Below, piece by piece: positions 23,036 to 49,760 of a DNA stretch of 64,000 nucleotides (position 1 is its first letter; each line of letters begins with the position of its first letter). The translations under genes and the position numbers were made by a program. The DNA is taken from the IMG/VR virus record IMGVR_UViG_3300049218_000083, positions 69,861 to 133,860 of that record. One strand, 5' to 3'. The DNA comes from a virus. Under the pieces are notes generated by a model that worked only from the letters and a program-made list of their open reading frames with translations, made no database searches and was not told the origin of the DNA.

Positions 23036-23320
23036 AGTGGCAGCTTATGAGGAACCCGGAAAGCTGCCGAAACCTGGTGAGAAATTACGCTGCTAGGCGG
23101 AATTCCTCAGATGCATTTTCAGTTGCATTTATACTGTTTTGCTTCATTTAGATGGTCGAACCACCAAGACGATAGCTTGTCTGTTGCCTTTACTTTTATC
23201 TCTTCCCGTCGAAAACTATTTCGCCCCCGAAGGTCGCCTAGCAGGGCGATAGTGGTGGAGGCGTCGGTTTCGCAACCGAGTCCGCAAAGCATTATAGCAA
23301 AGGAATTACAACATTCTGTT
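23036..23320 (-). ncRNA. ssrA: Circularly permuted (two-piece) tmRNA
   Basis: T-arm plus CGCCTCC-A-CCA (ends 23253), 24-nt spacer hairpin, then GGGGGCG..TTCGAC (G1=23228); G3-U70; tag ATENASEEFRLAA* at 23126-23085 after ATAAAT; P2 pairing; 3' hairpin GGCAGCTT/AAGCTGCC. Confidence 0.92.
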
Positions 23321-23908
23321 CATTTTATTTAGAGATTCATATTCGGTTCTATAGAACTCTCTTCTTTCAATTTTATTTAGCCCCTCATCAAGATTTGTCA
23401 AAAGTCCACCATGAGCAACCAACCCAAATATGTCAATTAACTTTGATTCATAGGATAATGCGTCAAGTTCGGAAATGTCAGTTATAAGTTTTACAACTTT
23501 TACTTCTTCACCAAAAGCCTCAATTTTTAATTTTATTTTTCTATGGGTCTCATTTCTATTTAATTCGTAACATCTATTACCCATACCCTTTCCAATGTAA
23601 AATGGCATATGTGTCATACCAAGAGTTGCGCCAAATGTAGTTTGCCCAGCTCTACCAATAGCAATTTTTTTAGTTGTATCTAAATGAGCATAAACATAAT
23701 ATTCTTTATTCGGATCTAATTCCAAATTCGAATACACAGATTTTATATCTGTATCATAAATTTTTCTACAATTATCAATTATTTGTCTAACCTTTTCGTT
23801 TTTTGATGGTTTATTTGATATTTGGGCAAGTCGACCCTTGACCTTACCGTAGTGTTCAAGTAACTTGACTGGGTCATCCCAGTCAAGTATAAATGTCTTT
23901 TCGTTCAT
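23306..23908 (-). CDS. GIY-YIG (LEM3-like) endonuclease, very AT-rich
   Basis: YYVYAHLD..PFYIGKGMGNR..ALSYESKLIDIFG..LTN; 3' end overlaps tmRNA 5' end. Confidence 0.78.
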   Translation of the reverse strand: MNEKTFILDWDDPVKLLEHYGKVKGRLAQISNKPSKNEKVRQIIDNCRKIYDTDIKSVYSNLELDPNKEYYVYAHLDTTKKIAIGRAGQTTFGATLGMTHMPFYIGKGMGNRCYELNRNETHRKIKLKIEAFGEEVKVVKLITDISELDALSYESKLIDIFGLVAHGGLLTNLDEGLNKIERREFYRTEYESLNKMNRML

Positions 23909-24555
23909 TTGAACCTCAACTTTTTGTATGAAAGAAGACGTTTTCTCTTGCCCGCAGGGATCGGAGCAGTTGCAAACGCTGTCATCACATTGCCAATGTC
24001 CGGTTCATAAAACGGATAGGTCGTAACACCAAGTTCCTTACAGTCATTGAGAGCTACAGCCATCTCACTTAAATCATGAACTCCTATCACTGCGAAGTAA
24101 AGCTCATCAAAGAATGATTGACTGAGAGCACCACTACGATGACCCATCTTCGCAGCAGCATGTGATGCCTGAACCAGCTGATACTCAGGTGAGATATCCT
24201 GGCGAACGAAAATGTAAATGTAATGGCGGTCAGTTGGTGCTGGCTCGTATGACTTATACAGTTCCTTGAGAACTTCATGGAAACGCTTGCGCTCTTCCTC
24301 TGTCTCGCAGAATGTTTCAGTCGCCCACTGGGCTTCTCTGAGTGCAACCGCAACGGTGTCATATGGCAAACGACCGTTGTCAAGTTTCTTCTTTCTGGTG
24401 ATTGGACTGAATCCGGAACGGATGATTTGGTTGGCGACCTTTACTGCGTCGTCACCATACTCCATACCGATGCAGATAGCACGTTGAACAACATGCCATC
24501 GTTCGAGTTGCTTGGTCTTAGCCAAGTCTTTGAAAATTGCTCTAAAGTTCTTCAT
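23905..24555 (-). CDS. Peptidyl-tRNA hydrolase 2 (PTH2)-like domain protein with N-terminal extension
   Basis: YIFVRQDISPEYQLVQASHAA..FYEPDIGNVMTAFATAP. Confidence 0.75.
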   Translation of the reverse strand: MKNFRAIFKDLAKTKQLERWHVVQRAICIGMEYGDDAVKVANQIIRSGFSPITRKKKLDNGRLPYDTVAVALREAQWATETFCETEEERKRFHEVLKELYKSYEPAPTDRHYIYIFVRQDISPEYQLVQASHAAAKMGHRSGALSQSFFDELYFAVIGVHDLSEMAVALNDCKELGVTTYPFYEPDIGNVMTAFATAPIPAGKRKRLLSYKKLRFK

Positions 24556-24774
24556 TGAAATTCTCCATCTATTGATACTGAATGATAATCGTCTCAAGCA
24601 GTAGCAACGAGGAGGACCTCGCGCATAACAAAAGTTCTACGTGTCAGGAACCTAGATTTCGAATTCTTGTTTCATAATTATGTCCTTGGTGGAATATCGC
24701 CCCAACCAGTGGATGCATTTCCACCTGGAAGGATAGCGACCCAGCCGTCTTTTTCGAACCAAGTCTTGACCATG

Positions 24775-25128
24775 TTAGCTCTTCTTGTGGAACAAGCCAG
24801 AAATCTTGTTTTCGGTTTCATGAAGAAGCGCAAGAGCGTCAGCTTCAAGCTTCTTAGCTTCGTCTTCGACCTTGTCTACAAAGCTCTCAGCAGTGTTTGC
24901 AGCGGTCTTCTCGTCAGCCTTTACGGTTGATACGACGGTGTTGGCTTCAGCCTTCACATCGGTTTCAACTTTCGGCCAGTCCTTTTCGAACAGGGAGAAA
25001 ATTGCGCGACCTTCTTCATCGACCTTGCCAGTTGCCTTAGCAGCTGCTGGAAGCAAGTTGCCTTCGATTACAACGACGGCAGAACGATCGACCTTGTCAA
25101 GCTTTTGGATCAGTGTTACAAGACTCAT
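24775..25128 (-). CDS. Helical Ala/Lys/Glu-rich hypothetical protein
   Basis: ORF with GGAG RBS. Confidence 0.6.
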   Translation of the reverse strand: MSLVTLIQKLDKVDRSAVVVIEGNLLPAAAKATGKVDEEGRAIFSLFEKDWPKVETDVKAEANTVVSTVKADEKTAANTAESFVDKVEDEAKKLEADALALLHETENKISGLFHKKS

Positions 25129-25144
25129 ATTTCTCTCCAGGAAG

Positions 25145-25221
25145 TGGCGCGCGAGGCGGGCATCGAACCCGCAACCTTCAGTTTTAGAGACTGCGCTCTA
25201 GCCAAGTTGAGCTACACGCGC
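25145..25221 (-). tRNA. Amber suppressor tRNA (anticodon CUA), Trp-like body
   Basis: Loop CTCTAAA; TTCGA T-loop; G73; encoded CCA. Confidence 0.88.
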
Positions 25222-25236
25222 ATCGTTACTTCCTAT

Positions 25237-25734
25237 TTAGCCTTGCGGACCCTTCGGTGGAAGCTGACGGTGAGGAGCACCATGCTGTTCCATCGCACAA
25301 ACACCCATTCCTGCAACCTTCCGCATGATGTCCAGAGCCTTCGGCTTCGCAGTGTTGCTTGCTTCACGACTCAGGATATGCTTCGCTTCGTTGATGTAGT
25401 CTTCCATGTAAGTGAACCACTCTTCCAACGAATGCTTACCTTCCGTTTCGTATGCACGTTCGCTATCTAGCGCCGCATACACCTGGGCTCGGCTTGCTGT
25501 CATCACTGCGTTTCCACGCTTGCTGAATTGTGCTTCAGCCTGTGCCAACACTCCGGAATTGATCGAACCATAGTTCGAGAACCAGCTACCGACCACCAGT
25601 CCTTCATGACTGACTCGTACAGAAATCGTTCCGTTGTCGAGATTCTCTACCTTGACATCGGCACCAAGTCTGCCAACCTTTGCTGCGTCAAGCATGAAAG
25701 CCTTGACATCTGTATACTGTTTTGCGTTTGACAT
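25237..25734 (-). CDS. Hypothetical protein
   Basis: 165-aa ORF with helical C-terminal domain. Confidence 0.6.
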   Translation of the reverse strand: MSNAKQYTDVKAFMLDAAKVGRLGADVKVENLDNGTISVRVSHEGLVVGSWFSNYGSINSGVLAQAEAQFSKRGNAVMTASRAQVYAALDSERAYETEGKHSLEEWFTYMEDYINEAKHILSREASNTAKPKALDIMRKVAGMGVCAMEQHGAPHRQLPPKGPQG

Positions 25735-25735
25735 G

Positions 25736-26059
25736 TTACATTAACCCCAATCGTTGTTTCTCTTGTATCTCAGCTATCTTCGCCTGGATGTCAGCTTGAC
25801 GTTTCCGCTCAGCAATCACATGCTCCAATTTCTGAAACGCTTGTTCCTGAACTATTGCGGCCAGCAACGTGCTTTGGTCAACCAACGCAGTATGCCAAAC
25901 CCCAACTCCTCCACCGACCTCGTCCGAAATGTATTCTCGACAGCCTGTGGCTTCATCAACTTTCCAATAAAGAGTACAGCCATTGGGCAATCTTACTTCG
26001 CCTGTTGTGGGTGGCGGTGGAAAAGTATCACCCAATGGCTTGTACAAGTCTTCGATCAT
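25736..26059 (-). CDS. Hypothetical protein
   Basis: Start MIEDLYK coupled to upstream stop. Confidence 0.55.
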   Translation of the reverse strand: MIEDLYKPLGDTFPPPPTTGEVRLPNGCTLYWKVDEATGCREYISDEVGGGVGVWHTALVDQSTLLAAIVQEQAFQKLEHVIAERKRQADIQAKIAEIQEKQRLGLM

Positions 26060-28382: not shown

Positions 28383-28898
28383 CTATCGCTGACTTTTGTC
28401 GATGCAGAATCTCGATGGCTTTTGCGCGTCTGCATCGGTCAGACCATTCATATGGTTAGTCTGCACGAAATTCTCTTTCTGGTCTGGACGCATATCTGAG
28501 TCATCGTCAAGAATAACATAACTCTTAATCTCGTCACCGAGTAGATCCATCCAACGCTTGATCTCATCGCCGCGTATGGACGACATCTCGAAACCATCGA
28601 CCATCTTACCTCGGGGAGTTTTGTCGATGACCTTGCTGGAAGCTAACTCGCCACCTGCAGTTTTGATGTAGCCACGAATCTCAGCCAAAGGATGCAGAAT
28701 TCTCCAGGTGGAACTGATCACGATCTCGACGTCAGGGTGAGCGACCATGATCTTCTCGAGATGGGCGACTGCTTCTGGATCGAATTCGGCTTCATCGCGC
28801 CACATGAAAGTCTTACCTTCTTCTTTCAGCTTCTGACGCTTCATGTACCACTTGGTACTATTCAGCACGCCATCGATGTCGAGGAACAAAACCTTCAT
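28383..28898 (-). CDS. HAD phosphatase, Swiss Army Knife RNA-repair-like domain
   Basis: LFLDIDGVLN; ISSTWR; RGDEI; YVILDDDSD. Confidence 0.82.
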   Translation of the reverse strand: MKVLFLDIDGVLNSTKWYMKRQKLKEEGKTFMWRDEAEFDPEAVAHLEKIMVAHPDVEIVISSTWRILHPLAEIRGYIKTAGGELASSKVIDKTPRGKMVDGFEMSSIRGDEIKRWMDLLGDEIKSYVILDDDSDMRPDQKENFVQTNHMNGLTDADAQKPSRFCIDKSQR

Positions 28899-29092
28899 GG
28901 GTACTTCCTCCGAATGTACTCTGCGACTTCTTCCTTCCCCATTGGCAACTCATTTGGTTGGATCCATTCGGCGAAGTCGTCGACGATCTGCCAACCAGCC
29001 AGGAAGTATCTCATCGCGCATGCCCAGAGCATTCCGAGCAGCATGAACGGCACGAAAATGATGTACAGAACGATAGCCAGAAAGTTCTTCAT
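28895..29092 (-). CDS. Small membrane protein
   Basis: Hydrophobic N-term. Confidence 0.55.
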   Translation of the reverse strand: MKNFLAIVLYIIFVPFMLLGMLWACAMRYFLAGWQIVDDFAEWIQPNELPMGKEEVAEYIRRKYP

Positions 29093-29685
29093 GCGTCCAC
29101 CTTTAGATTGTTGGCAAGCAACATCATGATGTCATAGGCGCAGTCATGTACTGGATCGTGCTTCTGAACGATGAACCGATTGAAGTTCGGGACATCACAG
29201 TATCCGCCTGAAGAGCCATCAACGATCAGGTCAACCGCTGTTCGAACGTCACGCCAGTTGGAGAAGGGAATGAGGATCTCCTGACCTGCGGAACGGCAAA
29301 GGCTGTCGAGCACGATACCATCGAGAGCACCACGTGCCCAGAACACGACGTCATCGTTCTTGCGTGTCTCTGGCTTCAGCTGGCAGTAAGTTCGCAGGGC
29401 ATTCAGGCCATCCACAGCCGAAACATCTGTAGGATAGACAGTCAAAGACTTGTCCTTGATGATCTGAGGACGCTTGCGCCACCATTCCATCGTTTCGGCG
29501 TCAACATGACGCTTGTAGACTTTGATCTGCTCTTCGACCTTGAACTTCACGAACACTGCGCGCTCGAGAAGATCCTGATAGTTTGGCTTTTCGTCGAGTT
29601 TGAACTCGATGGCAGCAACCGAAAGAACAACAGCGTTGCTCTCGATAGATGCGCACTCGATATCGACCATGTATTGACGTGTCAT
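29089..29685 (-). CDS. DEDDh 3'-5' exonuclease (DexA/Rv2179c-like)
   Basis: MVDIEC..FWARG..HDPVHDCAYD. Confidence 0.8.
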   Translation of the reverse strand: MTRQYMVDIECASIESNAVVLSVAAIEFKLDEKPNYQDLLERAVFVKFKVEEQIKVYKRHVDAETMEWWRKRPQIIKDKSLTVYPTDVSAVDGLNALRTYCQLKPETRKNDDVVFWARGALDGIVLDSLCRSAGQEILIPFSNWRDVRTAVDLIVDGSSGGYCDVPNFNRFIVQKHDPVHDCAYDIMMLLANNLKVDA

Positions 29686-30251
29686 TCTTCGTCCTTGCTG
29701 TGGTGTTGTCGGATCTCGAGTCGGTCCAAGTGACGCTTGATTTCATCCATCGGATACAGCCGATAGTCGCCATAACTAAAAGTCGGCGAGTCAACGCAGA
29801 CATTGGCGATGCGACCCTCGACGCCAGACAGCTTCTCATGGATGTGACCATGGAGATGATACGCACCACGAGCCATCTTGTTCCATTCCTGGATGGGATA
29901 GTGGAACAGAATCCAGTTGCCACCGGGAACCGTCAGTTCCTTGTATTCCTGAATCGTCGTGAACTTGTTGCGCAGCTTCTCGTCCTGACGAATCTCGCGG
30001 TCATGGTTGCCGTAGATCAAGTGCTTTTTGCCTGGCAGCTGATCCATGATCCGTTTGGCTTTGTCAGCCTTGCAGAAAAACCCATCACCCAGGATGAAGA
30101 CGTCATCTTCTGGAGTGACCTGTTCCTGCCACTTTTCAATCATCTTTCGGTCCATGACTTCGATGTTGGCATCGGGCCGAGTCGCAGGACAGAACCTGTG
30201 GATGTTGGTGTGGGAGAAATGATTGTCGGAAGTGAAGAAGATTTGACTCAT
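29682..30251 (-). CDS. Calcineurin-like metallophosphoesterase
   Basis: SDNHFSH; LGD; GNHD; FHYP; HGHIH. Confidence 0.88.
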   Translation of the reverse strand: MSQIFFTSDNHFSHTNIHRFCPATRPDANIEVMDRKMIEKWQEQVTPEDDVFILGDGFFCKADKAKRIMDQLPGKKHLIYGNHDREIRQDEKLRNKFTTIQEYKELTVPGGNWILFHYPIQEWNKMARGAYHLHGHIHEKLSGVEGRIANVCVDSPTFSYGDYRLYPMDEIKRHLDRLEIRQHHSKDEE

Positions 30252-30295: not shown

Positions 30296-30478
30296 TTAAA
30301 CCTCTTCTATCGTGATCTTGTGTCCAGCCCAAACGTAGACATCGGTGCTTTCTCCAGGAAGGAGTGATGCCAATGCCACACTCTCGATGTTGTTTGCGTC
30401 AGCACGCTTGACAATCACATTATGGTTGTCAGATGCAGTGTTGCTGGATTCATTGATAATCTTAACCTTGGTGGTCAT
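30296..30478 (-). CDS. Hypothetical protein
   Basis: 60-aa coupled ORF. Confidence 0.55.
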   Translation of the reverse strand: MTTKVKIINESSNTASDNHNVIVKRADANNIESVALASLLPGESTDVYVWAGHKITIEEV

Positions 30479-40472: not shown

Positions 40473-40838
40473 TTAAACTTTCTTGGCCTTTTGAACTGCT
40501 TTCTTCGCAGCTTCAATTCTAGCGCGTTCTTTCTTAACCACCTTCTCCATCTCGAGTATCTTGGCCTTTGCTTGAAGCATGATCTCGATGGCCTTGTCGA
40601 TCTTCTCGAGTTTCATCTCGGAGTCGGAGTCGTATTCTTCGAAGTCCCAAGTGATCACGCGATTGCAATCACCAAGACTCATGGTGAAGTCAACGTTGAT
40701 GTAATCCTTGTCTGGCGAATCAGCCTTGCTGACATAGACGTGCGCTTTGTAGCGAATGAAGCTGCCGGTGTCGAGTGGATCGATAAAGTCTCCACCAGTG
40801 ACACGGATCAGGTCATCGCGATTCTTTTTCTTCGGCAT
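40473..40838 (-). CDS. Hypothetical protein
   Basis: 121 aa, coiled-coil C-term. Confidence 0.6.
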   Translation of the reverse strand: MPKKKNRDDLIRVTGGDFIDPLDTGSFIRYKAHVYVSKADSPDKDYINVDFTMSLGDCNRVITWDFEEYDSDSEMKLEKIDKAIEIMLQAKAKILEMEKVVKKERARIEAAKKAVQKAKKV

Positions 40839-42019: not shown

Positions 42020-42107
42020 TGGCGGAGAGCAGAGGAATCGAACCCCAACCCATTACTGAGTCCCTTTCTTTAGCAAAGAAGCGTGAGCCCAGCCCACGTT
42101 ACTCTCC
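42020..42107 (-). tRNA. tRNA-Ser(GCT)
   Basis: Loop TTGCTAA; long variable arm; GCCA. Confidence 0.88.
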
Positions 42108-42470
42108 AGATCTCTTTCTGTTGTCTTGATTGACTTTCTTAGTGATGTCAATGAAGTCAGGATACATTTTCTTGAACGTTTTGACAGCGTCATGAATGTT
42201 ACCAGCATACCACTCGGAGTTCTTTCCAGTTCCTGAACCTTTGAATGGCAACCATGCGTTGTGCATAGCCTTCTCAACTTCCTTGTGGTCTTCCATTTCT
42301 GCGACCAAAAGAACTTCGGCTGTCATGCCCGGAAACACTTTGTAGCGGTTCAGGGATTTCTTCAATTCCAACAAGTCACGGCTGGTCTTATCGACTCTGC
42401 CGAGCTTAAAGAAGGTCTTCCGTCCTGGATGTTTGATGATGTAAATTGAACCACTGGTTTTCTTCATCAT
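42099..42470 (-). CDS. GIY-YIG / T5orf172-like protein
   Basis: GSIYII..FKLGR..VEKAMH..SEWY. Confidence 0.65.
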   Translation of the reverse strand: MMKKTSGSIYIIKHPGRKTFFKLGRVDKTSRDLLELKKSLNRYKVFPGMTAEVLLVAEMEDHKEVEKAMHNAWLPFKGSGTGKNSEWYAGNIHDAVKTFKKMYPDFIDITKKVNQDNRKRSGE

Positions 42471-42512: not shown

Positions 42513-43100
42513 CTAGTGCTTATTATACGCTGGATTCTTCCAGACTCGGCTGTTCTTAGGAATCGTTGCAAGCAAGTAGTCCATTTGATCAGCCAGCACT
42601 TTCCGGTTCTTCAACAGCAACTTCTCCTGAAGAGATGGTGCGTATGGAACGTAAAGAAGATGCATTCCTGCTTCCTCTGGAGTCCTGTCAGCCTTACCAT
42701 GGTTGCATGACTTACATGCAGTTACCGTGTTTGTCCAGAAGTGCCTTCCACCACGAGACTTTGGGTGCACGTGGTCGATGGTCAAGTGGTGATCCTTGAA
42801 CTGGATTCCACAGTAAGCGCAAAGATGTGCGTCACGAGCGTACAGAATGTCACGCTCTGCGTACACGGTTTCACGAGTGTAGAAATCGTTGCCGAATACA
42901 GGACCAGTAACCATGATGATGCTTGACACTGTGACGACAGAAACATCGCCGTCGCCGTTCTTTCCGCCTGTATAGGTCTTGATTGGGGAACCAAGATCAC
43001 ACACGACTTTGTCACGAGCGTAGTAGCAACATCCAGTTTCTATGTCAGTCCAGTCACGTGGGTTGCCAGATTTGTCAACAATCAATACATCGAGAGACAT
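42513..43100 (-). CDS. HNH endonuclease (McrA-like)
   Basis: RDAHLCAYCG..TIDHVHPKSRGG..WTNTVTACKSCN. Confidence 0.9.
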   Translation of the reverse strand: MSLDVLIVDKSGNPRDWTDIETGCCYYARDKVVCDLGSPIKTYTGGKNGDGDVSVVTVSSIIMVTGPVFGNDFYTRETVYAERDILYARDAHLCAYCGIQFKDHHLTIDHVHPKSRGGRHFWTNTVTACKSCNHGKADRTPEEAGMHLLYVPYAPSLQEKLLLKNRKVLADQMDYLLATIPKNSRVWKNPAYNKH

Positions 43101-43145: not shown

Positions 43146-43220
43146 TGGAGTGGTCGACAGGATTCGAACCTGCATAGGACAGTTTTGCAGACTGCCGCGT
43201 GACCTTTCCGCCACGACCAC
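43146..43220 (-). tRNA. tRNA-Cys(GCA)
   Basis: Loop CTGCAAA; TCCA. Confidence 0.9.
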
Positions 43221-43228
43221 GTTGACTC

Positions 43229-43555
43229 TTAGCGCGCCAGGATCAGATTTTGATTTGGCACATCAATCTTGCGCTTGCCAAACATACGTTCATGGTGAAC
43301 GATAACCTGATCATCAGGCTTGGCAATGAATACGATCTTGTCCAGGAACAGAGGGACGGCACCGTCAACCAATGTTGCCCACGGAAGGAAACCTACACCG
43401 ATTTTGACTTGACCTGTCTTAGGATCCGGTTCGCCTGGCTGCGGAACAATCATCACAGCTTCGTCAACCTCGACAATAGTCTCGCTGACATTCAGGACGC
43501 GGCAAAGAAGCTCTTCGCCAGAAACCAACTTCACAATCTTTACATCGTCACTCAT
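43229..43555 (-). CDS. Conserved T4-like hypothetical protein (Sm-like)
   Basis: VKIVKLVSGEEL; FLPW. Confidence 0.65.
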   Translation of the reverse strand: MSDDVKIVKLVSGEELLCRVLNVSETIVEVDEAVMIVPQPGEPDPKTGQVKIGVGFLPWATLVDGAVPLFLDKIVFIAKPDDQVIVHHERMFGKRKIDVPNQNLILAR

Positions 43556-43564
43556 GATATCCCC

Positions 43565-43726
43565 TTAAAATTTGAACCTGACCTGTAACGGCATTCGCTT
43601 GTCACAGTGAAGATGGACATTATGCTTATCATCGACCGCGCGTTCGCACAGGACAAAAACATTTTCTCTGGTGATTGCACAACCAGAGAAAATGAGCAGT
43701 ATGACCAACAAAACTATGTTGCGCAT
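43565..43726 (-). CDS. Small putative lipoprotein
   Basis: Lipobox FSGC. Confidence 0.5.
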   Translation of the reverse strand: MRNIVLLVILLIFSGCAITRENVFVLCERAVDDKHNVHLHCDKRMPLQVRFKF

Positions 43727-43761
43727 ACAATTATGATAACCTGGAATTGACGATGGGGAAA

Positions 43762-43837
43762 TGGAGCGGATGATGGGACTCGAACCCACGACGTTTTCCT
43801 TGGCAAGGAAATGCAATTGCCGCTATGCGACATCCGC
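43762..43837 (-). tRNA. tRNA-Gly(GCC)
   Basis: Loop TTGCCAA. Confidence 0.92.
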
Positions 43838-43845
43838 GAAAGGAG

Positions 43846-43990
43846 TGCCCGAAGTGGGATTCGAACCCACAGTAAGCGTCGTGCATCACCTTTTCGGTTG
43901 CATCGACCTATACAAAGATACATTAATGCTGACTCGGACATTCGCACAATGCGAACCCATGTTGCGTTTTGCCTGTTTCGCCATTCGGGC
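43846..43990 (-). ncRNA. 145-nt tRNA-like RNA with large insertion
   Basis: Leu-like acceptor GCCCGAA/TTCGGGC, D-arm and T-arm; no standard anticodon arm; no CCA. Confidence 0.7.
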
Positions 43991-44021
43991 AGAGTGGTTG
44001 CGCGAAACATCTTTGTAAACC

Positions 44022-44096
44022 TGGTGCTCTCACTGAGAATCGAACTCAGATCCCGTCCTTACCAAAGACGTATCTTGACCATTGGACGATAAGAGC
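44022..44096 (-). tRNA. tRNA-Thr(GGT)
   Basis: Loop TTGGTAA. Confidence 0.9.
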
Positions 44097-44100
44097 GAAC

Positions 44101-44173
44101 TGGTGGTTCATGAAGGAATCGAACCTTCGTATTGCCATGTCAAAGCAACGTATTCCCGCTATACGAATGAACC
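44101..44173 (-). tRNA. tRNA-Val(GAC)
   Basis: Loop TTGACAT. Confidence 0.88.
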
Positions 44174-44180
44174 AAAATCT

Positions 44181-44363
44181 TTAGTGAATTCCTAGCGCAT
44201 GTAAATATGGCAGGAACTGTATTACCAACCAAACCACTAAAGCAGCAATGGCTACGCAGTTCAGGATATCCTTGAACGTTTGCTGGATTGGCGCTTTGTT
44301 TGCTAGATATAGCAAAATTCCAGCGAAGAAAATTACTGCAAGAATTGGTAGAATCGCGATCAT
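44181..44363 (-). CDS. Small two-TM membrane protein
   Basis: MIAILPILAVIFFAGILLYL.. Confidence 0.55.
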   Translation of the reverse strand: MIAILPILAVIFFAGILLYLANKAPIQQTFKDILNCVAIAALVVWLVIQFLPYLHALGIH

Positions 44364-44397
44364 AGTTTGTGTCTCAACATTATGTTTATCGAACAAT

Positions 44398-44474
44398 TGG
44401 TACCTCAGATGGGAGTCGAACCCACAGAAACTCATTTTTGAGACGAGTATGTTTGCCAATTACATCACTGAGGC
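44398..44474 (-). tRNA. tRNA-Leu(CAA), short variable arm
   Basis: Loop CTCAAAA. Confidence 0.87.
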
Positions 44475-44497
44475 ATAGGTCAATATGTATCCAAAGC

Positions 44498-44583
44498 TGG
44501 CGGGAAGCTGACGAATCGAACGCCAACCGTTTCCAGTCGATCTGCTTTCTAGACAGTCTTGAGCCCAGCCCAAATAACTTCCC
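44498..44583 (-). tRNA. tRNA-Ser(AGA), A34
   Basis: Loop CTAGAAA; long arm; G73. Confidence 0.85.
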
Positions 44584-44587
44584 AATA

Positions 44588-44664
44588 TGGTGCCTCGTGC
44601 GAGATTCGAACTCGCAAAATTCTGGGTTTAAGTCAGACACGTTTGCCAATTACGTCAACAAGGC
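44588..44664 (-). tRNA. tRNA-Leu(TAA), short variable arm
   Basis: Loop CTTAAAC. Confidence 0.85.
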
Positions 44665-44671
44665 GAATCGA

Positions 44672-44767
44672 TGGTACTCCATACAGGAATTGAACCTGCC
44701 CGTTGCAGCCAGTCCGGCCACTCTCGCGTGCTTATAAAACACACCCGCACGACCAGTGCTATGGAGC
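44672..44767 (-). tRNA. tRNA-Ile(TAT)-like with long variable arm
   Basis: Loop TTTATAA; 96 nt; ACCA. Confidence 0.7.
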
Positions 44768-44784
44768 ATATTATACTCTAAACT

Positions 44785-44870
44785 TGGCGGAAAGTACAGG
44801 AATCGAACCTGAACCCTTTAGAGTCAATCTGTTTAGCAAACAGTTGCAGACCCAGTCTACATTACTTTCC
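44785..44870 (-). tRNA. tRNA-Ser(GCT), second copy
   Basis: Loop TTGCTAA; long arm. Confidence 0.88.
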
Positions 44871-44875
44871 AAATT

Positions 44876-44926
44876 TGGCGGATGGTGAAGTATAAGGCAG
44901 TTGTTTTACCGCTAAACTATAGGACC
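44876..44926 (-). pseudogene. Chimeric truncated tRNA
   Basis: 5' half of one tRNA (GGTCCTA..CTTATA) joined to a Ser-type 3' end (CACCATCCGCCA). Confidence 0.65.
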
Positions 44927-44931
44927 AAAAC

Positions 44932-45017
44932 TGGCGGAAGAATGACGAATCGAACGCCACCAGTTTCCCGGCAATCCGCTTTCAAGGCGGTTCCCATCCC
45001 AGATGAGTTATTCTTCC
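44932..45017 (-). tRNA. tRNA-Ser(TGA)
   Basis: Loop CTTGAAA; long arm. Confidence 0.9.
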
Positions 45018-45019
45018 AA

Positions 45020-45299
45020 ATTCTTTGTTCTGAAATTGCGCGTCCTGGTTCTAATCATGTGACAGTTAGAACAACGTATAACACATTTTTGCAATTTCGA
45101 CTTTAATCTTTTTTAGGCTGGAATACATCATGGAGCCAACCGTCTTGACTTTGGTTGTTTCATTGACATGATCAAATTCTAGCGCATGTGCATTGGCTTT
45201 GTAACCGCAGTCAACGCATCCTTTCATTCGCTTGTACCGACCAATGATTGCTCTGGTACGTGCGGCTCTAATTTTACTTACGCTTGGATTGGTGCCCAT
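45020..45299 (-). pseudogene. Frameshifted HNH endonuclease
   Basis: CVDCG..LEFDH..EIAK, then CVIRCSNCH in another frame after an A5 run near 45088. Confidence 0.7.
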
Positions 45300-45310
45300 G
45301 GGAGTATAGC

Positions 45311-45385
45311 TGGTGTTCCTAGAGGGAATCGAACCCTCGTCGAGATCTTGAGAGGATCTCATCCTGGCCGCTAGAAGATAGGAAC
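45311..45385 (-). tRNA. tRNA-Glu(CTC)
   Basis: Loop CTCTCAA. Confidence 0.9.
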
Positions 45386-45390
45386 ATAAC

Positions 45391-45466
45391 TGGGGCGATC
45401 GACGAGATTCGAACTCGCGCTGACTCTTTCACAGAGAGTGGTGCTTACCGCTACACTACGAACGCC
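45391..45466 (-). tRNA. tRNA-His(GTG)
   Basis: Loop CTGTGAA; G-1, C73. Confidence 0.9.
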
Positions 45467-45472
45467 ATAAAC

Positions 45473-45546
45473 TGGTTCCTCGAGATGGGGTCGAACCACC
45501 GTTAACGATTTCAGAGACCGTTGTCCTGCCATTAGACGATCGAGGA
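45473..45546 (-). tRNA. tRNA-Gln(CTG)
   Basis: Loop CTCTGAA. Confidence 0.88.
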
Positions 45547-45604
45547 ATAAACTGGAGCGCGCCAGAGTGTTTGGCTCTGTAAAGTCGCGAGCAGCGCGCA
45601 TAAA

Positions 45605-45680
45605 TGGTCGGAGTGGTGGGATTCGAACCCACGACCTCTCAGTTCCAAGCCGAGTCGTCTGGCCACTGACTTACACTCCG
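45605..45680 (-). tRNA. tRNA-Pro(TGG)
   Basis: Loop CTTGGAA; C1-G72. Confidence 0.88.
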
Positions 45681-45688
45681 ATAAACTT

Positions 45689-45772
45689 TGGTGCCCTCGA
45701 TAGGAGTCGAACCTACACGTCTTTCGACACTGGCTTCTTAGACCAGCATGGCTGCCGTTACATCACAAGGGC
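45689..45772 (-). tRNA. tRNA-Leu(AAG), A34
   Basis: Loop CTAAGAA; long arm; A73. Confidence 0.87.
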
Positions 45773-45777
45773 AAATC

Positions 45778-45854
45778 TGGACCCGCCAATAGGATTCGAA
45801 CCTACAACCATCCGCTTCGTAGGCGGAAGCTCTATCCAGTTGAGCTATGGCGAG
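45778..45854 (-). tRNA. tRNA-Arg(ACG)
   Basis: Loop CTACGAA. Confidence 0.9.
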
Positions 45855-45888
45855 AATATTGTGGTAATGCTAGCTTGTTTACCATAGA

Positions 45889-45964
45889 TGGCACCCTCGA
45901 TAGGAGTCGAACCTACGCGATCTTCGTTCGAAGCGAAGTCCCCGAATTCCCTCGGGTCGAAGGC
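45889..45964 (-). tRNA. tRNA-Arg(TCG)
   Basis: Loop CTTCGAA. Confidence 0.85.
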
Positions 45965-45969
45965 ATAAT

Positions 45970-46046
45970 TGGTAGCGAGTGGCAGGATTCGAACCTGCGT
46001 TCTTCAGCTTATGAGACTGACGAGATGGCCTCTTCTCCACACCGCA
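45970..46046 (-). tRNA. tRNA-Met(CAT), initiator-like 1:72 mismatch
   Basis: Loop CTCATAA; T1:T72; lacks the three G-C anticodon pairs. Confidence 0.8.
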
Positions 46047-46054
46047 TAATCGTG

Positions 46055-46375
46055 ATAGTGTTTGTGTTAGATTTTCGAGAAGTTGTCAAGCTTCTATCTT
46101 TCCCAGCACCTCTAGTTGTTCAGGTTCACTTGACTCCGCAGGATGGCCGTCCTGCCTCAACATCAAGGAGAGTCTTTCACTCTCAGCACCGTCGCCTTCT
46201 GACTTTATGTGTCTACCGACTGTGCAGCGATCCCAGGCTGTTTCCATATCTGACCTGGTACTTTCTACCCTTACTCTAAATGCCGTCTACTCAAATATTG
46301 CGTATGGACTTTCGCAACTGCCTTTCCGCCGAAGGACGCGTCTTATCAGCCACAAAAACCCAACACAAACACTAC
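46055..46375 (-). ncRNA. ~320-nt structured ncRNA candidate
   Basis: 23-bp closing helix whose four non-WC pairs are all G-U on the minus strand; several internal hairpins; no ORF. Confidence 0.7.
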
Positions 46376-46383
46376 AAACAAAC

Positions 46384-46458
46384 TGGTGGTGATACTGAGA
46401 ATCGAACTCAGGTTAATGGCTTATGAGACCACTGTCTTTGCCGCTGGACGATATCACC
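46384..46458 (-). tRNA. tRNA-Met/Ile2(CAT)
   Basis: Loop CTCATAA. Confidence 0.87.
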
Positions 46459-46463
46459 GAAAT

Positions 46464-46539
46464 TGGTCGAACTGGTTGGAGTCGAACCAACTCATCTGGG
46501 GTTTCAAGCCAGCGCTAAATCCACATCAGCTACAGTTCC
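46464..46539 (-). tRNA. tRNA-Phe(GAA)
   Basis: Loop TTGAAAC; 1:72 and 31:39 mismatches. Confidence 0.75.
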
Positions 46540-46697
46540 AAAATCGCTGGTTTTGAAATTGTTCCAGCAAACAAGCATGTCAGGGTAGACTCGGACATTA
46601 ACCCTTTTTCTTACGCATCTTTCCGGATTCAAAGTCCGGCGATAACGATCAGCATTCCCGCTCTCCACGAGCAGGCGCATGAGGACATGACATAATA

Positions 46698-46774
46698 TGG
46701 TACTCGTGACAGGAGTTGAACCTGCAACATTCTGGTTCTAAGCCAGACGCGTCTGCCAATTGCGCCACACGAGC
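46698..46774 (-). tRNA. tRNA-Leu(TAG), short variable arm
   Basis: Loop CTTAGAA. Confidence 0.88.
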
Positions 46775-46951
46775 ATAAGAGAAAAGAAGGACGCCGATGT
46801 CACGATTTGCGCGGACTAGGAGGTTATGAAGCTCCGTACTGCTAAAGACGACGTCCTCTGCTATAGTCAACCGGAGTTGCTGTAGCCTACCATCTCAGCC
46901 AAGGCACTTGTCAAAGCGATCAAATCATCAACATCAATCATACTTGTAATT

Positions 46952-47027
46952 TGGAACACCGAGTAGGCATCGAACCTACATTCTCCTAGTTCAAAGCCAG
47001 GCGTCCTACCAATTAGACGATCAGTGT
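46952..47027 (-). tRNA. tRNA-Gln(TTG)
   Basis: Loop CTTTGAA. Confidence 0.87.
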
Positions 47028-47033
47028 ATAATC

Positions 47034-47110
47034 TGGCGCAACCGACGGGATTCGAACCCGCACCGTCTCCCGTGACAGGGGAGAGACCTAGCCAGTTGGT
47101 CTACGGTTGC
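47034..47110 (-). tRNA. tRNA-Asp(GTC)
   Basis: Loop CTGTCAC; G73. Confidence 0.9.
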
Positions 47111-47117
47111 ATAAATT

Positions 47118-47195
47118 TGGTGGGCCGCCAGGGATTCGAACCCTGAGTCTCGGTGCTTAAAAGGCAGGTGATTTTTCCAGTTAATCTAGCAGCCC
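47118..47195 (-). tRNA. tRNA-Lys(TTT)
   Basis: Loop CTTTTAA; weak anticodon stem. Confidence 0.83.
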
Positions 47196-47201
47196 AAATT
47201 T

Positions 47202-47276
47202 TGGTAGGTCTAGAAGGATTCGAACCCTCGTTTTCCGCTAATCAGGCAGACGTCCTTGCCTCTGGACGATAGACCC
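47202..47276 (-). tRNA. tRNA-Ile(GAT)
   Basis: Loop CTGATTA. Confidence 0.87.
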
Positions 47277-47283
47277 ATAATCT

Positions 47284-47442
47284 TTACTTGGTGGACAACG
47301 CTGTAATCAGCGCCAACAAGTTTTCGTATCTTCTACCAGCGCTGTCAAGATAGTAGGTGACCATCTTGCCATTGACTTTCTGTCTGCAGCGCGTGATATT
47401 GTGACCATCGACAACGATTTGTTTCTTCTGCACAAATTCCAT
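47284..47442 (-). CDS. Small hypothetical protein (52 aa) in tRNA array
   Basis: GGAG RBS; MEFVQKKQIVVDGHNITR.. Confidence 0.5.
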   Translation of the reverse strand: MEFVQKKQIVVDGHNITRCRQKVNGKMVTYYLDSAGRRYENLLALITALSTK

Positions 47443-47501
47443 AATGGTCTCCGATTCTTTTTGGCTACAGTCTTTCTACTTGACAATGCTTGCATTTCAT
47501 A

Positions 47502-47577
47502 TGGTGGGTCCGCAGGGATTCGAACCCTGATCTCGCTGGTTAAGAGCCAGATATAATAGCCGTTATACGACGAACCC
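47502..47577 (-). tRNA. tRNA-Lys(CTT)
   Basis: Loop CTCTTAA. Confidence 0.9.
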
Positions 47578-47583
47578 GAAACT

Positions 47584-47659
47584 TGGTGCCCTTGACAGGA
47601 GTCGAACCTGCAACCTGCGGGATAGGAATCCGCTGCTCTTTCCATTGAGCTACAAAGGC
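47584..47659 (-). tRNA. tRNA-Arg(CCT)
   Basis: Loop TTCCTAT. Confidence 0.88.
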
Positions 47660-47702
47660 ATGGAGTGCAAGGAGGAATACACCTCACGATGCACATAGAA
47701 AT

Positions 47703-47779
47703 TGGTACAGCCGACCGGAGTCGAACCGGCATTGCACAGGGTGAAAACCTGGGTTCCTAAGCCATTAGAAGACGGCTGC
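47703..47779 (-). tRNA. tRNA-Glu(TTC)
   Basis: Loop TTTTCAC. Confidence 0.9.
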
Positions 47780-47790
47780 ATAGACGAAAT

Positions 47791-47865
47791 TGGAGCTCCC
47801 ACTCAGAATCGAACTGAGTTCTCAGGATTACAAAACCAGCGCATCGCCACGTATGCTTTGGGAGC
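47791..47865 (-). tRNA. tRNA-Thr(TGT)
   Basis: Loop TTTGTAA. Confidence 0.85.
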
Positions 47866-47871
47866 AGAAAT

Positions 47872-47947
47872 TGGAGCGGACGACCAGACTCGAACTGGCA
47901 TGACTCTGATTTGGAAGACCAGGGCACAACCTTTATACCACATCCGC
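47872..47947 (-). tRNA. tRNA-Gly(TCC)
   Basis: Loop CTTCCAA; TCCA. Confidence 0.9.
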
Positions 47948-47982
47948 GAAAACAAGTGAAATGCGTGCGATCGCACGCAGTC

Positions 47983-48108
47983 TTAGACCTTCTCGGTGCT
48001 ACCGATCAGGTCATCGGTGCCTTTATCTTGGCGACCGAATGTAGGAGAAATAGACAGTGATATCGTTTGTTCAAAATGCTTACTATCGCATTGAGTAACG
48101 ATACCCAT
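47983..48108 (-). CDS. Small hypothetical protein (41 aa)
   Basis: AGGAG RBS then MGIVTQCD.. Confidence 0.35.
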   Translation of the reverse strand: MGIVTQCDSKHFEQTISLSISPTFGRQDKGTDDLIGSTEKV

Positions 48109-48141
48109 GATTGTCTCCTAAGTTAATGAAGTGAAAGAAAT

Positions 48142-48219
48142 TGGTCGGGGTTAAGGGATTCGAACTCTTGACCTTCTGCGCCCAAGGCAGACGCTCTAAC
48201 CAGACTGAGCTAAACCCCG
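48142..48219 (-). tRNA. tRNA-Pro(TGG), second copy
   Basis: Loop CTTGGGC. Confidence 0.9.
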
Positions 48220-48226
48220 AAGAAAC

Positions 48227-48313
48227 TGGTGCATTGTGATGGATTCGAACCACCGTTGCCCATAGGACGGCTGATTTACAGTCAGCTTGTTTAAACCACT
48301 CACACAACAATGC
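48227..48313 (-). tRNA. tRNA-Tyr(GTA)
   Basis: Loop CTGTAAA; long arm. Confidence 0.9.
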
Positions 48314-48321
48314 AGAAACTT

Positions 48322-48397
48322 TGGTGCCCTTGGTAGGAATCGAACCCACACCGAATCGGGTAGAAGCCGAACGCATTATCCGTTTTGCTACAAGGGC
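48322..48397 (-). tRNA. tRNA-Arg(TCT)
   Basis: Loop CTTCTAC. Confidence 0.88.
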
Positions 48398-48410
48398 AGG
48401 GAAATTAAAT

Positions 48411-48519
48411 CGGTTCCATAGACAGGGATCAAACCTGCAAATTCTTCAGCAGGACACTTGGCTGCAATACACAAGTGGAAGTCCTCTGCCCAAGACACCG
48501 TACCGTTTGTTACCATGAA
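48411..48519 (-). ncRNA. tRNA-like RNA with extended anticodon arm
   Basis: Acceptor TTCATGG/CTATGGA; T-arm GCAGG-TTTGATC-CCTGT; CACTTG/CAAGTG stem; ends ACCG. Confidence 0.6.
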
Positions 48520-48538
48520 ATACATAACCAAATTTAAC

Positions 48539-48613
48539 TGGCGGGATGCGAGGGATTCGAACCCCCATAACTAGTTTTGGAGTCTAGAGTCCTAGCCATT
48601 GGACGAGCAACCC
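48539..48613 (-). tRNA. tRNA-Trp(CCA)
   Basis: Loop CTCCAAA; G73. Confidence 0.83.
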
Positions 48614-48942
48614 AATTTTGCTTTACCTCTTTTCTTCAGATGAACATGGCCTTTCTGAAAGAGGTTGACTTTACGAGCAGCGCGAAGGTTGCAACGCAAA
48701 TGTGAAAATGATATGTTGTTCATATCCCAGAACAACTCCGTCGGTGTCGCAGTATCTTGCCAAGCAATTTTATGCTCTAAGCTCAACTGACCGAACTTGA
48801 TTTTCTCACCACAATGAAAGCACACATCGAAACCTGCTTTCTGCGCGAGATCGAATATAACCATGTTCCATAACTTTCTAGAAGCTGCATGAAAGCTCAT
48901 ACCGAGCTGCGCAGATTTCTTCTTGAAAGTGCTGGTTCCCAT
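48592..48942 (-). CDS. HNH endonuclease in tRNA array
   Basis: CFHCGE..LSLEHKIAW..NNISFSHLRCN; overlaps tRNA-Trp 5' end. Confidence 0.75.
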   Translation of the reverse strand: MGTSTFKKKSAQLGMSFHAASRKLWNMVIFDLAQKAGFDVCFHCGEKIKFGQLSLEHKIAWQDTATPTELFWDMNNISFSHLRCNLRAARKVNLFQKGHVHLKKRGKAKLGCSSNG

Positions 48943-48960
48943 GATGTATCCTCTGTAAAT

Positions 48961-49034
48961 TGGTGGGATTGATGGGAGTTAAACCACGTGACCTCTCACC
49001 GTTAAGTGAGCGCTCTACACTGAGCTACAACCCC
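48961..49034 (-). tRNA. Degenerate tRNA-Val-like (AAC?)
   Basis: 6-nt loop TTAACG; irregular T-arm. Confidence 0.5.
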
Positions 49035-49075
49035 GAAGCGACGGTTCTCTGCTCTAGTACCGACAACACGTAATT

Positions 49076-49154
49076 TGGTGGACCGCCAGGGATTCGAACC
49101 CTGCTAGTTTCCTCGGTGCAAGCGAGGTGAACACCCCAAGCATTCCCGCAGCCC
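49076..49154 (-). tRNA. tRNA-Ala(TGC)
   Basis: Loop CTTGCAC; G3-U70. Confidence 0.88.
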
Positions 49155-49159
49155 AAAAC

Positions 49160-49234
49160 TGGTAGTCCGTGACGGGATTGAACCGCCGACCCTCTCCGTG
49201 TAAAGGAGACGCTCTCCCGCTGAGCTAACGGACC
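49160..49234 (-). tRNA. tRNA-Val(TAC)
   Basis: Loop TTTACAC. Confidence 0.92.
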
Positions 49235-49314
49235 ATGGGATAGAATTGGCAGAGTCGTCTGGTAATCGGCGCGACCCGATACCCTGGCTTGCAACCAGAC
49301 GACTCTACCATTTT

Positions 49315-49390
49315 TGGCTCCGTGTGCAGGATTCGAACCTACGAATACTCCGTTAACAGCGGAGGCTATTACCACTCTAGTCAACACGGA
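49315..49390 (-). tRNA. tRNA-Asn(GTT)
   Basis: Loop CTGTTAA; T1-A72, G73. Confidence 0.9.
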
Positions 49391-49399
49391 AGAAACTTT

Positions 49400-49760
49400 C
49401 CTTTCTTTTATGCTGTGTATTTTGGTTAAGAAAACGATACAGCACTGCGTAGTGTACGCATACCAGAATCAGGTGGCGAAGGCAGCCAAGACAAGACAAA
49501 AACATTGCTGGTTTGATGGGATCCAGCGCCCAATAGCAAATGGGTCCTGCTTGCGGCAAGACCCTTAATCTTGTTCCAGCGGTTCGTGTTTACGAGTAAC
49601 CGCGTGCTGGGTCCGGTGAGAACGTCACCGAAAGTTGCGTGGGAGAATCCGGGAAGCATTCTTCCTAACAGCTAGAATTAGCTGACAGGTACTTCATGCG
49701 GTGCTTCTACCACCCCAAATCATCAGCGCGGATTTCTCCGCGAGTAGAACAATCATGAGT
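49400..49760 (-). ncRNA. ~360-nt structured ncRNA candidate at head of tRNA array
   Basis: At least 6 hairpins plus long-range pairing 49702-49714 with 49472-49484; no credible ORF. Confidence 0.6.

Follow-up and report, generated by a model that had tools for sequence, protein, structure and literature searches.

The stretch of viral DNA analyzed here (hereafter the window) covers 64,000 nucleotides (nt), bases 69861-133860 of the IMG/VR virus record IMGVR_UViG_3300049218_000083. Between positions 23036 and 49760 of the window lies a block that encodes an RNase P RNA together with a large tRNA array, a permuted transfer-messenger RNA (tmRNA), a ClpP protease, a stand-alone GGQ-domain protein, and an amber suppressor tRNA accompanied by a Pth2-fold gene. 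Among these components, the RNase P RNA, which is virus-encoded and domain-reduced, is the most unusual; suites of translation genes in large phages are already known. With a confidence slightly better than even, we suggest that the region is a conserved and modular accessory block that supplies and maintains the phage's translation substrates and that comprises at least three separable submodules. The identity of the parts, their conservation, and their physical linkages can be read directly from the data described below, and from these we infer the activities of the parts, their dependence on host partners, and a benefit to the phage, which is most likely sustained translation during shut-off of host RNA synthesis or during an attack on translation. 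The source record is 166,743 bp long with 47.7% G+C and a CheckV completeness of 98%, and it corresponds to a large, lytic, T4-like, and uncultured phage of ~167 kb; the same DNA is present in several moss metagenome runs. Neither the block nor its RNase P RNA matched any of 50,697 phage records in megablast and blastn searches.

The RNase P RNA is 248 nt long and is located at positions 40220-40467 on the minus strand, where its helices were mapped by eye. These are a 9-bp P1, P2, P3, P4, P5, a P15/16-like element followed by GGGUU, a GAAA-capped P18, and P19. P4 is a pseudoknot with a bulged U, in which CR-I (GAGGAAGUUCAGG) pairs with CR-V (ACAGAAACCUGGCUA), and the flanking ACAGAA and GGCU sequences are both in place; the CR-IV-like segment reads AGGCGAAU. 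A 42-nt hairpin (40372-40413) stands alone between the P5 strands, and P7-P14, CR-II, and CR-III were not found in the RNA. In RNase P RNA, the specificity domain reads the elbow formed by the T-loop and D-loop of the tRNA, and the GGU sequence in L15 binds CCA. Since the P5 strands are only 42 nt apart, the specificity domain is essentially gone from the window RNA, a reduction that, as judged by sequence, matches the truncated type T and not type A or type B.

Rfam is silent on the RNA in the window, and its assignment to the RNase P family, which an earlier note had made from the letters alone, is carried instead by covariation and by the scores of its relatives. A syntenic copy is positioned behind the homolog of the GGQ gene in two related loci (L001, the closest relative, and L002), and a covariance model of these two copies gives a single match in the window (39.1 bits, E 6e-11). 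The exact CR-I plus CR-V pattern retrieves 117 IMG/VR contigs, where fewer than one is expected by chance from its information content, and the family hence has at least 117 members. For P4, the four free bases of the 3′ strand were compared with the four bases after GUUC. Among 94 distinct sequences with 31 different tetramers, 368 of 376 cells are paired, relative to 212 on average and at most 232 with shuffled partners. In the nested helices (P1, P2, P3, P5, and P15; 74 sequences), 92.3% of the cells are paired as opposed to 33-42% with slid partners, and 46 of the 49 pairs show double changes, figures that lean toward the structure since the model guided the alignment. Conserved in the family consensus are GAGGAAGUUC, GCAA (J5/15), cGGGU, AGAnAAAUG, and ACAGAAnnnnGGCUA, with cGGGU standing where L15 binds CCA. 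Against the RNaseP_bact_a model, family members reach 94.7, 89.4, and 74.7 bits, below the RF00010 cut-off of 100, while RNaseP_arch is matched by others with 21-44 bits and RNaseP-T with 31 bits.

The same pattern was also searched for in cellular genomes. About 37 of the 43 matches (L153-L195) belong to metagenome-assembled genomes (MAGs) of DPANN archaea (Aenigmatarchaeota and Micrarchaeota), and the six DPANN contigs tested as a positive control are all above the RNaseP_arch threshold (88-129 bits); the pattern hence represents a genuine signature of RNase P. It is the phage variant of CR-I, GAGGAAGUUC, that recurs in the RNase P RNAs of DPANN archaea, and not the bacterial GAGGAAAGUCC. 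One further match, a 3-kb contig in a MAG of Candidatus Roizmanbacteria (candidate phyla radiation; L156), carries 13 tRNAs and the phage-type pattern and is probably a misbinned phage fragment. Collectively, the synteny, the covariance-model match, the covariation, the Rfam scores of the relatives, and the DPANN control lead to the conclusion that the window RNA is, at the level of sequence, a reduced RNase P RNA homolog with a predicted catalytic activity. With the cellular families RF00010 (Escherichia coli M1 RNA), RF02357 (type T), and RF00373 (DPANN) it has in common P1-P5, the P4 helix with its bulged U, CR-I, CR-IV, and CR-V, the GCAA in J5/15, the GGU after P15/16, and the GNRA loop of P18. 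It differs from the cellular RNase P RNAs in that its CR-I is GAAGUUC as in DPANN archaea and not GAAAGUCC, in having the 42-nt hairpin in place of P7-P14, CR-II, and CR-III, and in being encoded by a virus beside its putative substrates.

This last feature holds for most of the family. tRNA genes are present in 97 of the 117 loci (median 8 per ~11 kb), and all 1251 of them (1251/1251) are on the strand of the RNase P RNA. Conversely, when records were retrieved through homologs of the GGQ protein, the RNA was present in one of 14. No RnpA was detected in the 50 largest IMG/VR records bearing the RNase P RNA, including the 12 that are at least 90% complete, or in the present genome. These 50 records are the sample for all co-occurrence counts given below; many of them are related, and the counts are not independent.

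The putative substrates in the present phage are 40 tRNA genes, close to the approximately 41 counted in the earlier note. ARAGORN accounts for 37 of them and Rfam for three (45974-46045, 47794-47865, and 48964-49034). All are on the minus strand, together they serve all 20 amino acids, the 3′ CCA is encoded in every gene, and many of the spacers are 5-9 nt long. The main array (43146-49390, minus strand; ARAGORN and Rfam) comprises 38 co-oriented genes, and an isolated tRNA-Thr(CGU) gene (39582-39656, minus strand; ARAGORN) is situated downstream of the RNase P RNA. An ARAGORN call of 96 nt (44672-44767, minus strand) has the anticodon UAU and a long extra arm, and a weak tRNA-Sec-like Rfam match of 33 bits is found outside the array (42023-42108, minus strand). 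Such a layout of the array is consistent with polycistronic precursors, and each cut by RNase P would then also set the short 3′ trailer of the upstream tRNA.

In the first of the three proposed submodules, the 40-gene set would thus probably be transcribed as polycistronic precursors with encoded CCA and very short spacers, and the RNase P RNA, reduced to its catalytic domain, would process the array tRNAs at their 5′ ends as well as the precursor of the two-piece tmRNA. It would do so alone or with host RnpA, since RnpA is encoded by no phage of this kind. The trimming of the short 3′ trailers after the RNase P cuts may be achieved by an RNase T-like enzyme, a candidate being the Rv2179c-like 3′-5′ exoribonuclease encoded at positions 29089-29685 (minus strand; PF16473, E 2.2e-16), which is conserved in the relatives G001, G054, and G028.

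The second submodule concerns ribosome rescue. The tmRNA (23036-23313, minus strand; RF04321, RF01849) is a circularly permuted two-piece molecule, as had been recognized before. Its match to RF04321 has a score of 100.7 bits (cut-off 47) at 23085-23313 on the minus strand, and RF01849 (alpha_tmRNA) matches at 23036-23357 with 50.4 bits. In minus-strand order, the acceptor 3′ piece with its terminal CCA is followed by a spacer hairpin of ~24 nt, the 5′ piece that starts with GGGGGCG, and the tag open reading frame (ORF), which reads ATENASEEFRLAA and ends in a stop; a terminator-like hairpin comes thereafter. The acceptor stem, GGGGGCG/CGCCUCC-ACCA, includes the G3-U70 pair, and the molecule has the features that define a permuted tmRNA. 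RNase P cleavage generates the 5′ end of the coding piece in two-piece tmRNAs. The two-piece tmRNA of Alphaproteobacteria (Caulobacter ssrA) is alike in its permuted order, G3-U70 pair, encoded CCA, ...EEF..AA tag tail, and a coding-piece 5′ end expected from RNase P. The phage RNA, however, is encoded without smpB, and its tag ends in LAA, which is the gammaproteobacterial ClpX-type ending. A family search revealed no SmpB in the 98%-complete genome; the partner of the phage tmRNA would be host SmpB.

The ClpP proteolytic subunit is encoded at positions 33950-34534 on the minus strand (PF00574, E 9e-83). It scores 318.6 bits against NF001368 (cut-off 249) but 89.5 bits against the head-maturation protease model (cut-off 120), it carries the motifs AASMGA, MIHQP, and DRDNF of a Ser-His-Asp triad (assigned by eye), and its N-terminus is of the mature type. 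By these scores and motifs, the product is a true housekeeping-type ClpP and not a head-maturation protease. The proposal that it matches the LAA degron of the tag holds with respect to the protease but not with respect to degron recognition: ClpP by itself cannot read the LAA degron, and no ClpX-type ATPase (AAA_2) was found in the genome. Together with host ClpX or ClpA, it would be an extra degradation capacity for tagged products.

The GGQ protein (40813-41214, minus strand; PF00472, phrog_3122) consists of 133 amino acids (aa) and corresponds to domain 3 of RF-1. Its assignment as a GGQ rescue factor agrees with the scores (50.3 bits against PF00472, cut-off 35; E 1e-26 against phrog_3122), and its best PDB sequence match is PrfH (9mor_A, E 2e-8). 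The protein is without codon-reading domains, and its acidic C-terminus ends in DGEVDAEEKESR. With ArfB (YaeJ) and PrfH it shares a GGQ catalytic domain homologous to domain 3 of RF1/RF2. Its tail is acidic, whereas the basic tail of ArfB, which is absent here, probes the empty mRNA channel, and relative to PrfH it lacks the N-terminal domain and the RtcB2 partner. In keeping with these differences, its NCBIfam scores for ArfB (NF006718; 29.4 bits, cut-off 100) and PrfH are far below the cut-offs. The GGQ-only protein is expected to free peptides from stalled ribosomes. A homolog is present in 206 mycobacteriophage records, with the cluster C members ScottMcG, Catera, and Rizal among those listed. 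In ScottMcG (L196, 115553-115909), its annotation is that of an RF-1 domain protein, and its gene is flanked by those for DNA polymerase and a RecA-like protein. A tmRNA and a Ro-like RNA-binding protein are likewise encoded by these cluster C mycobacteriophages.

The third submodule would be a self-contained cassette in which an amber suppressor tRNA is combined with a Pth2-fold gene that has TAG codons in frame ahead of it. The suppressor, tRNA(CUA), is located at positions 25145-25221 on the minus strand (ARAGORN; 49.6 bits against the Rfam tRNA model), in line with the suppressor named in the earlier note; it has the discriminator base G73 and an encoded CCA, and it lies 18 kb from the main array and ~550 nt upstream of the Pth2-like gene. 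The latter (23905-24555, minus strand; AlphaFold2 [AF2] and Foldseek) encodes a protein of 216 aa, in which a helical N-terminal part of ~105 aa is followed by a C-terminal Pth2-like domain. The AF2 model has a pLDDT of 94.4, and the top 14 Foldseek matches in the PDB, including 3erj, 2zv3, 1q7s, 1rlk, 1wn2, and 1xty, are all Pth2 (probability 1.0, target TM 0.67-0.73). Since all these top matches are Pth2, the structure prediction confirms the Pth2 fold. It does not confirm family membership by Pfam score: the protein has no Pfam match and no PDB match by phmmer or profile search, and PF01981 is weakly matched by nine of 56 relatives (best E 0.0019). The claim of a Pth2-like hydrolase is hence borne out for the fold but not for sequence membership. 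Invariant columns in the family include R118, D120, Q129, H132, E184, and T192, and P185 and D186 are nearly invariant.

Suppressor and hydrolase had been listed as separate tools. This part of the claim has to be revised, since they belong to the same conserved cassette. In 13 of 18 loci, the CUA tRNA adjoins the Pth2-like gene; it is nearly always located upstream and is usually the sole tRNA in the stretch, and the anticodon loop CUCUAAA is common to all copies. Moreover, a leader ORF (24637-24675, minus strand) with the sequence MKQEFEI-TAG-VPDT-TAG is positioned in frame upstream of the Pth2-like gene in the window. G001 has preserved this two-TAG leader (as MATKI-TAG-KIPDT-TAG), and in G054 it is partial. 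In the short-form Pth2-like genes (among L135 and L139-L150), the initial M is followed by one to four residues and then TAG, which is at codons 3-6 in 10 loci; the long-form gene in the window has its own ribosome-binding site and ATG besides the leader. Since in-frame TAGs precede or open the Pth2-like genes, the orphan suppressor gains a natural target, and the neighborhood in 13 of 18 loci together with the early TAG codons argues that the suppressor tRNA and the Pth2-like gene form one cassette. Recoding of TAG in the whole genome was considered as well and rejected: TAG terminates 25 of the 177 long ORFs, and the coverage gained when it is translated as a sense codon does not exceed that gained when TGA or TAA is treated this way. 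Code 11 suffices for the genome, of which ORFs of at least 100 aa cover 84%.

Thus far, we have described the parts separately, and an important question is whether they are linked. Among the 50 records, a tmRNA over the Rfam cut-off is present in 19 (eight permuted and 11 one-piece), the Pth2-like domain in 17, the GGQ domain in 10, SmpB in eight, and true ClpP (at least 215 bits) in seven; in the 12 records that are at least 90% complete, the counts are nine for tmRNA, seven for the Pth2-like domain, four for the GGQ domain, and two for SmpB. Physical linkage is more telling than these counts. The order of the block is kept in the relatives G001 and G054. It runs GGQ, a small ORF, RNase P RNA, kinase, ligase, ClpP, Prs, NAMPT, phosphoesterase, exonuclease, HAD, and, after further genes, tRNA-CUA, the Pth2-like gene, and the permuted tmRNA; within this order, ClpP, HAD, and GGQ come and go. 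In G024, an unrelated 248-kb phage (locus L136), tmRNA (162502-162870), smpB (163149-163565), and clpP (163585-164169) are contiguous, and a GGQ-domain gene (159541-159867) is 3 kb away from them, which makes a compact ribosome-rescue cluster. ClpP also adjoins tmRNA in G019. The linkage of the parts that had been proposed is therefore supported to some extent by the co-orientation of the tRNA arrays, the synteny of the block, and the G024 cluster, but not by the patchy distribution of the parts.

The permuted tmRNA directly adjoins the full-length Pth2-like gene in G001, G054, and G028. In the window, the two are split by a GIY-YIG-like ORF of 200 aa (23306-23908, minus strand; PF22945, E 6e-4, below the cut-off), which has no tblastn match in these three relatives. 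Since it splits the pair in this phage only, it is likely a mobile endonuclease insertion. Endonuclease-like ORFs border RNA genes elsewhere in the block too: besides the GIY-YIG-like ORF, there are T5orf172 (42099-42470) and HNH (42513-43100) ORFs, all on the minus strand.

Two additional structured RNAs are associated with the tRNA array. One of ~320 nt is inside it (46055-46375, minus strand; fold z-score -3.0). A long terminal helix closes the structure, compensatory changes are seen in 23 of 65 predicted pairs, and a homolog is present in the closest relative (L001:1262-1582; nhmmer E 1.5e-24); no Rfam family matched it. This RNA was considered as a specificity domain acting in trans, given a GUAAGGGUAGAAAG stretch that it contains, but it matched no RNase P model of Rfam at E ≤ 10, and the idea was dropped. 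The other is a structured, ORF-poor leader of ~360 nt before the array (49400-49760, minus strand; fold z-score -3.2), for which searches of four relatives and of the other retrieved loci gave no homolog. A moss metatranscriptome run (X8) has exact contigs over parts of the array, both structured RNAs, and two ORFs. The deepest piece (~20x) corresponds to 46065-46352 in the array RNA, and an exact 312-nt contig covers 49457-49768 at the leader. These expression data tell little either way because the coverage is thin and carry-over of DNA is possible. Scans for promoters and terminators near the RNase P RNA and the tmRNA gave no informative signal.

Among the remaining genes, an NAD salvage pair (31576-33918, minus strand) adjoins ClpP halfway through the block and comprises NAMPT and a ribose-phosphate-pyrophosphokinase-like gene, with 81% and 64% identity, respectively, in G001. 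A 336-aa ORF (30475-31485) was tried as an RNA ligase and ruled out; it resembles viral family-2 glycosyltransferases (Atlas). For a 133-aa ORF at 41237-41638, family and profile searches gave no function.

Several observations weigh against the explanation favored here. The window RNA is unseen by Rfam at the gathering threshold, at E ≤ 1, and at E ≤ 10, a 500-nt slice included, and the loss of its specificity domain could mean weak or altered catalysis. It is also uncovered in the X8 run, and no RNA run matched in the run listing either. Co-occurrence of the parts is partial and patchy (GGQ in 10 of 50 records and ClpP in seven of 50), and the earlier note had named such a distribution beforehand as an outcome refuting its toolkit. 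An enrichment beyond the expectation that large phages carry many translation genes is not demonstrated, because there is no matched control of tRNA-rich phages that lack the RNA and the records are related. Unrelated genes for NAD salvage, a glycosyltransferase-like protein, a DNA ligase, DenV, and homing endonucleases are found inside the block. Finally, the activities ascribed to all parts are deduced from sequence or fold.

An alternative is that the block is a counter-defense toolkit, which replaces tRNAs, heals RNA ends, and rescues ribosomes in response to anticodon nucleases, mRNA interferases, and PARIS/PrrC/RloC-type systems. We consider this possible but unlikely. It has been proposed that phage tRNAs replace tRNAs cleaved by host defenses (PMC10264068), and rescue factors cluster in several phages. 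Moreover, candidates for RNA end healing are indeed present in the block, as the earlier note had considered possible: in addition to the exoribonuclease discussed above, there is a HAD phosphatase of the "Swiss Army Knife" RNA-repair type (28383-28898, minus strand; PF18143 [HAD_SAK_2], E 3.7e-31; phrog_1818), present in G054 and absent from G001, and a P-loop kinase that is weakly polynucleotide-kinase-like (38767-39255, minus strand; PF13671, E 1.3e-6; phrog_2071, E 8e-14; phrog_505 "polynucleotide kinase", E 4e-4). A metallophosphoesterase (29682-30251, minus strand; PF00149, E 2e-4) has weak similarity to PdeM (TIGR04123, E 6e-5, far below the cut-off). PdeM is associated with DNA-repair ligases. 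The missing part of the claim is the ligase. No Rnl2-type RNA ligase, RtcB, or CCA-adding enzyme was found in the genome (Rnl1-type ligases were not searched for separately), so that a kinase or phosphatase is not accompanied by an RNA ligase and healing would proceed without sealing. The healing candidates, moreover, are neighbors of an ATP-dependent DNA ligase, DenV, and a PD-(D/E)XK nuclease; being ligase-less and among DNA-repair genes, part of the set is equally likely to act in DNA repair. The patchy distribution, and the fact that the parts show no tie to any particular defense system, also argue against a counter-defense toolkit.

A more specific scenario starts from the RNase P RNA itself. 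Together with host RnpA, it might constitute a phage-specific RNase P for the packed, CCA-ended arrays and the phage's own tmRNA, co-evolved with the rescue set (tmRNA, ClpP, GGQ, and an amber-gated Pth2) and sustaining translation when tRNA processing and rescue by the host are shut down or attacked. A viral ribozyme would then be the core of a system for the survival of translation. This scenario is put forward tentatively, and we regard it as rather improbable. In this context, it had been expected that SmpB, RnpA, and ClpX would come from the host or from elsewhere in the genome. They are indeed not in the block, but elsewhere in the 98%-complete genome none was found either: family searches of the whole genome were negative for SmpB, RnpA, PTH2, AAA_2 (ClpX type), RtcB, the CCA-adding enzyme, RNA_ligase, and Pth.

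It is also conceivable, and in our judgment quite improbable, that there is no system at all and that the genes are accessory cargo in a hyperplastic region beside the tRNA array, their co-location being historical. The interleaved NAD-salvage, glycosyltransferase-like, DNA-repair, and homing-endonuclease genes would fit this explanation, as would the variability of ClpP, HAD_SAK, and GGQ between close relatives and the position of the GGQ gene among replication genes in cluster C mycobacteriophages. However, the adjacencies between RNase P RNA and tRNA arrays, between tRNA-CUA and the Pth2-like gene, and among tmRNA, smpB, and clpP recur in unrelated phages.

In bacteria, RnpA binds regions in the catalytic domain of RNase P RNA. 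Because RnpA (none in 50 records) and, in this phage, SmpB are not encoded, the phage RNAs must meet host proteins, and they might do so as decoys that capture RnpA and SmpB and thereby cripple or redirect host maturation and rescue. The RNase P RNA has kept the RnpA-binding regions and lost the domain that binds the tRNA elbow, and a mycobacteriophage tmRNA is cut down to its tRNA-like domain, a similar molecule being a strong inhibitor of tmRNA (PMC4131195). Such titration is nevertheless very improbable, since the two RNAs retain more than a decoy needs (an intact tag ORF, G3-U70, and CCA in the tmRNA and, under strong covariation, all motifs of the catalytic core together with the CCA-binding GGU in the RNase P RNA) and since SmpB is encoded in eight of the 50 related records.

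The preferred explanation, a modular block that supplies and maintains translation substrates, can be compared with known systems. In Xanthomonas phage XacN1, 56 tRNAs and two orphan CUA suppressors are found along with a CCA-adding enzyme, PNKP/Hen1, and Pth (PMC5852040); huge phages encode release factors, ribosome recycling factor, tmRNA, and SmpB (PMC7162821); Bacillus phage G has tmRNA, a suppressor tRNA, and ClpXP (PMC12484599); and cluster C mycobacteriophages are carriers of tmRNA (PMC4131195). RNase P is not mentioned in these four papers, and our literature searches found no paper on a phage RNase P RNA. The translation suites of jumbo and huge phages are like the present block in having tRNA sets for all amino acids, orphan CUA suppressors, tmRNA, release-factor-like proteins, a standard code, peptidyl-tRNA hydrolase, ClpP or ClpXP, and tRNA repair enzymes. 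The present genome, in contrast, is only 167 kb and is without SmpB, a CCA-adding enzyme, PNKP/Hen1, and ClpX.

T4, with its tRNA cluster and the Pnkp/Rnl1 enzymes of PrrC repair, is similar in that both are T4-like phages with their own RNase P-processed tRNA array and RNA-end enzymes. T4, however, uses host RNase P and its own RNA ligase, whereas the present phage has an RNase P RNA and no RNA ligase was found. The cluster C mycobacteriophages (Bixzunavirus: Bxz1, ScottMcG, Catera, and Rizal) are also alike, with genomes of ~155 kb, ~30 tRNAs, a tmRNA (PMC4131195), and a GGQ-only homolog of 41-46% identity, but their tmRNA is one-piece and their GGQ gene is among replication genes. Cultured members that have both the tmRNA and the GGQ homolog provide a laboratory entry point.

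The tRNA-CUA/Pth2-like/tmRNA and tmRNA-smpB-clpP adjacencies offer testable units for addressing the reasons behind the investment of lytic phages in ribosome rescue. The RNase P RNA family, with more than 100 members located amid their substrates, would, if active, represent natural minimal ribozymes for the study of substrate recognition without the specificity domain. It would also mean, if active, that phages take over the 5′ maturation of tRNAs as well as their supply.

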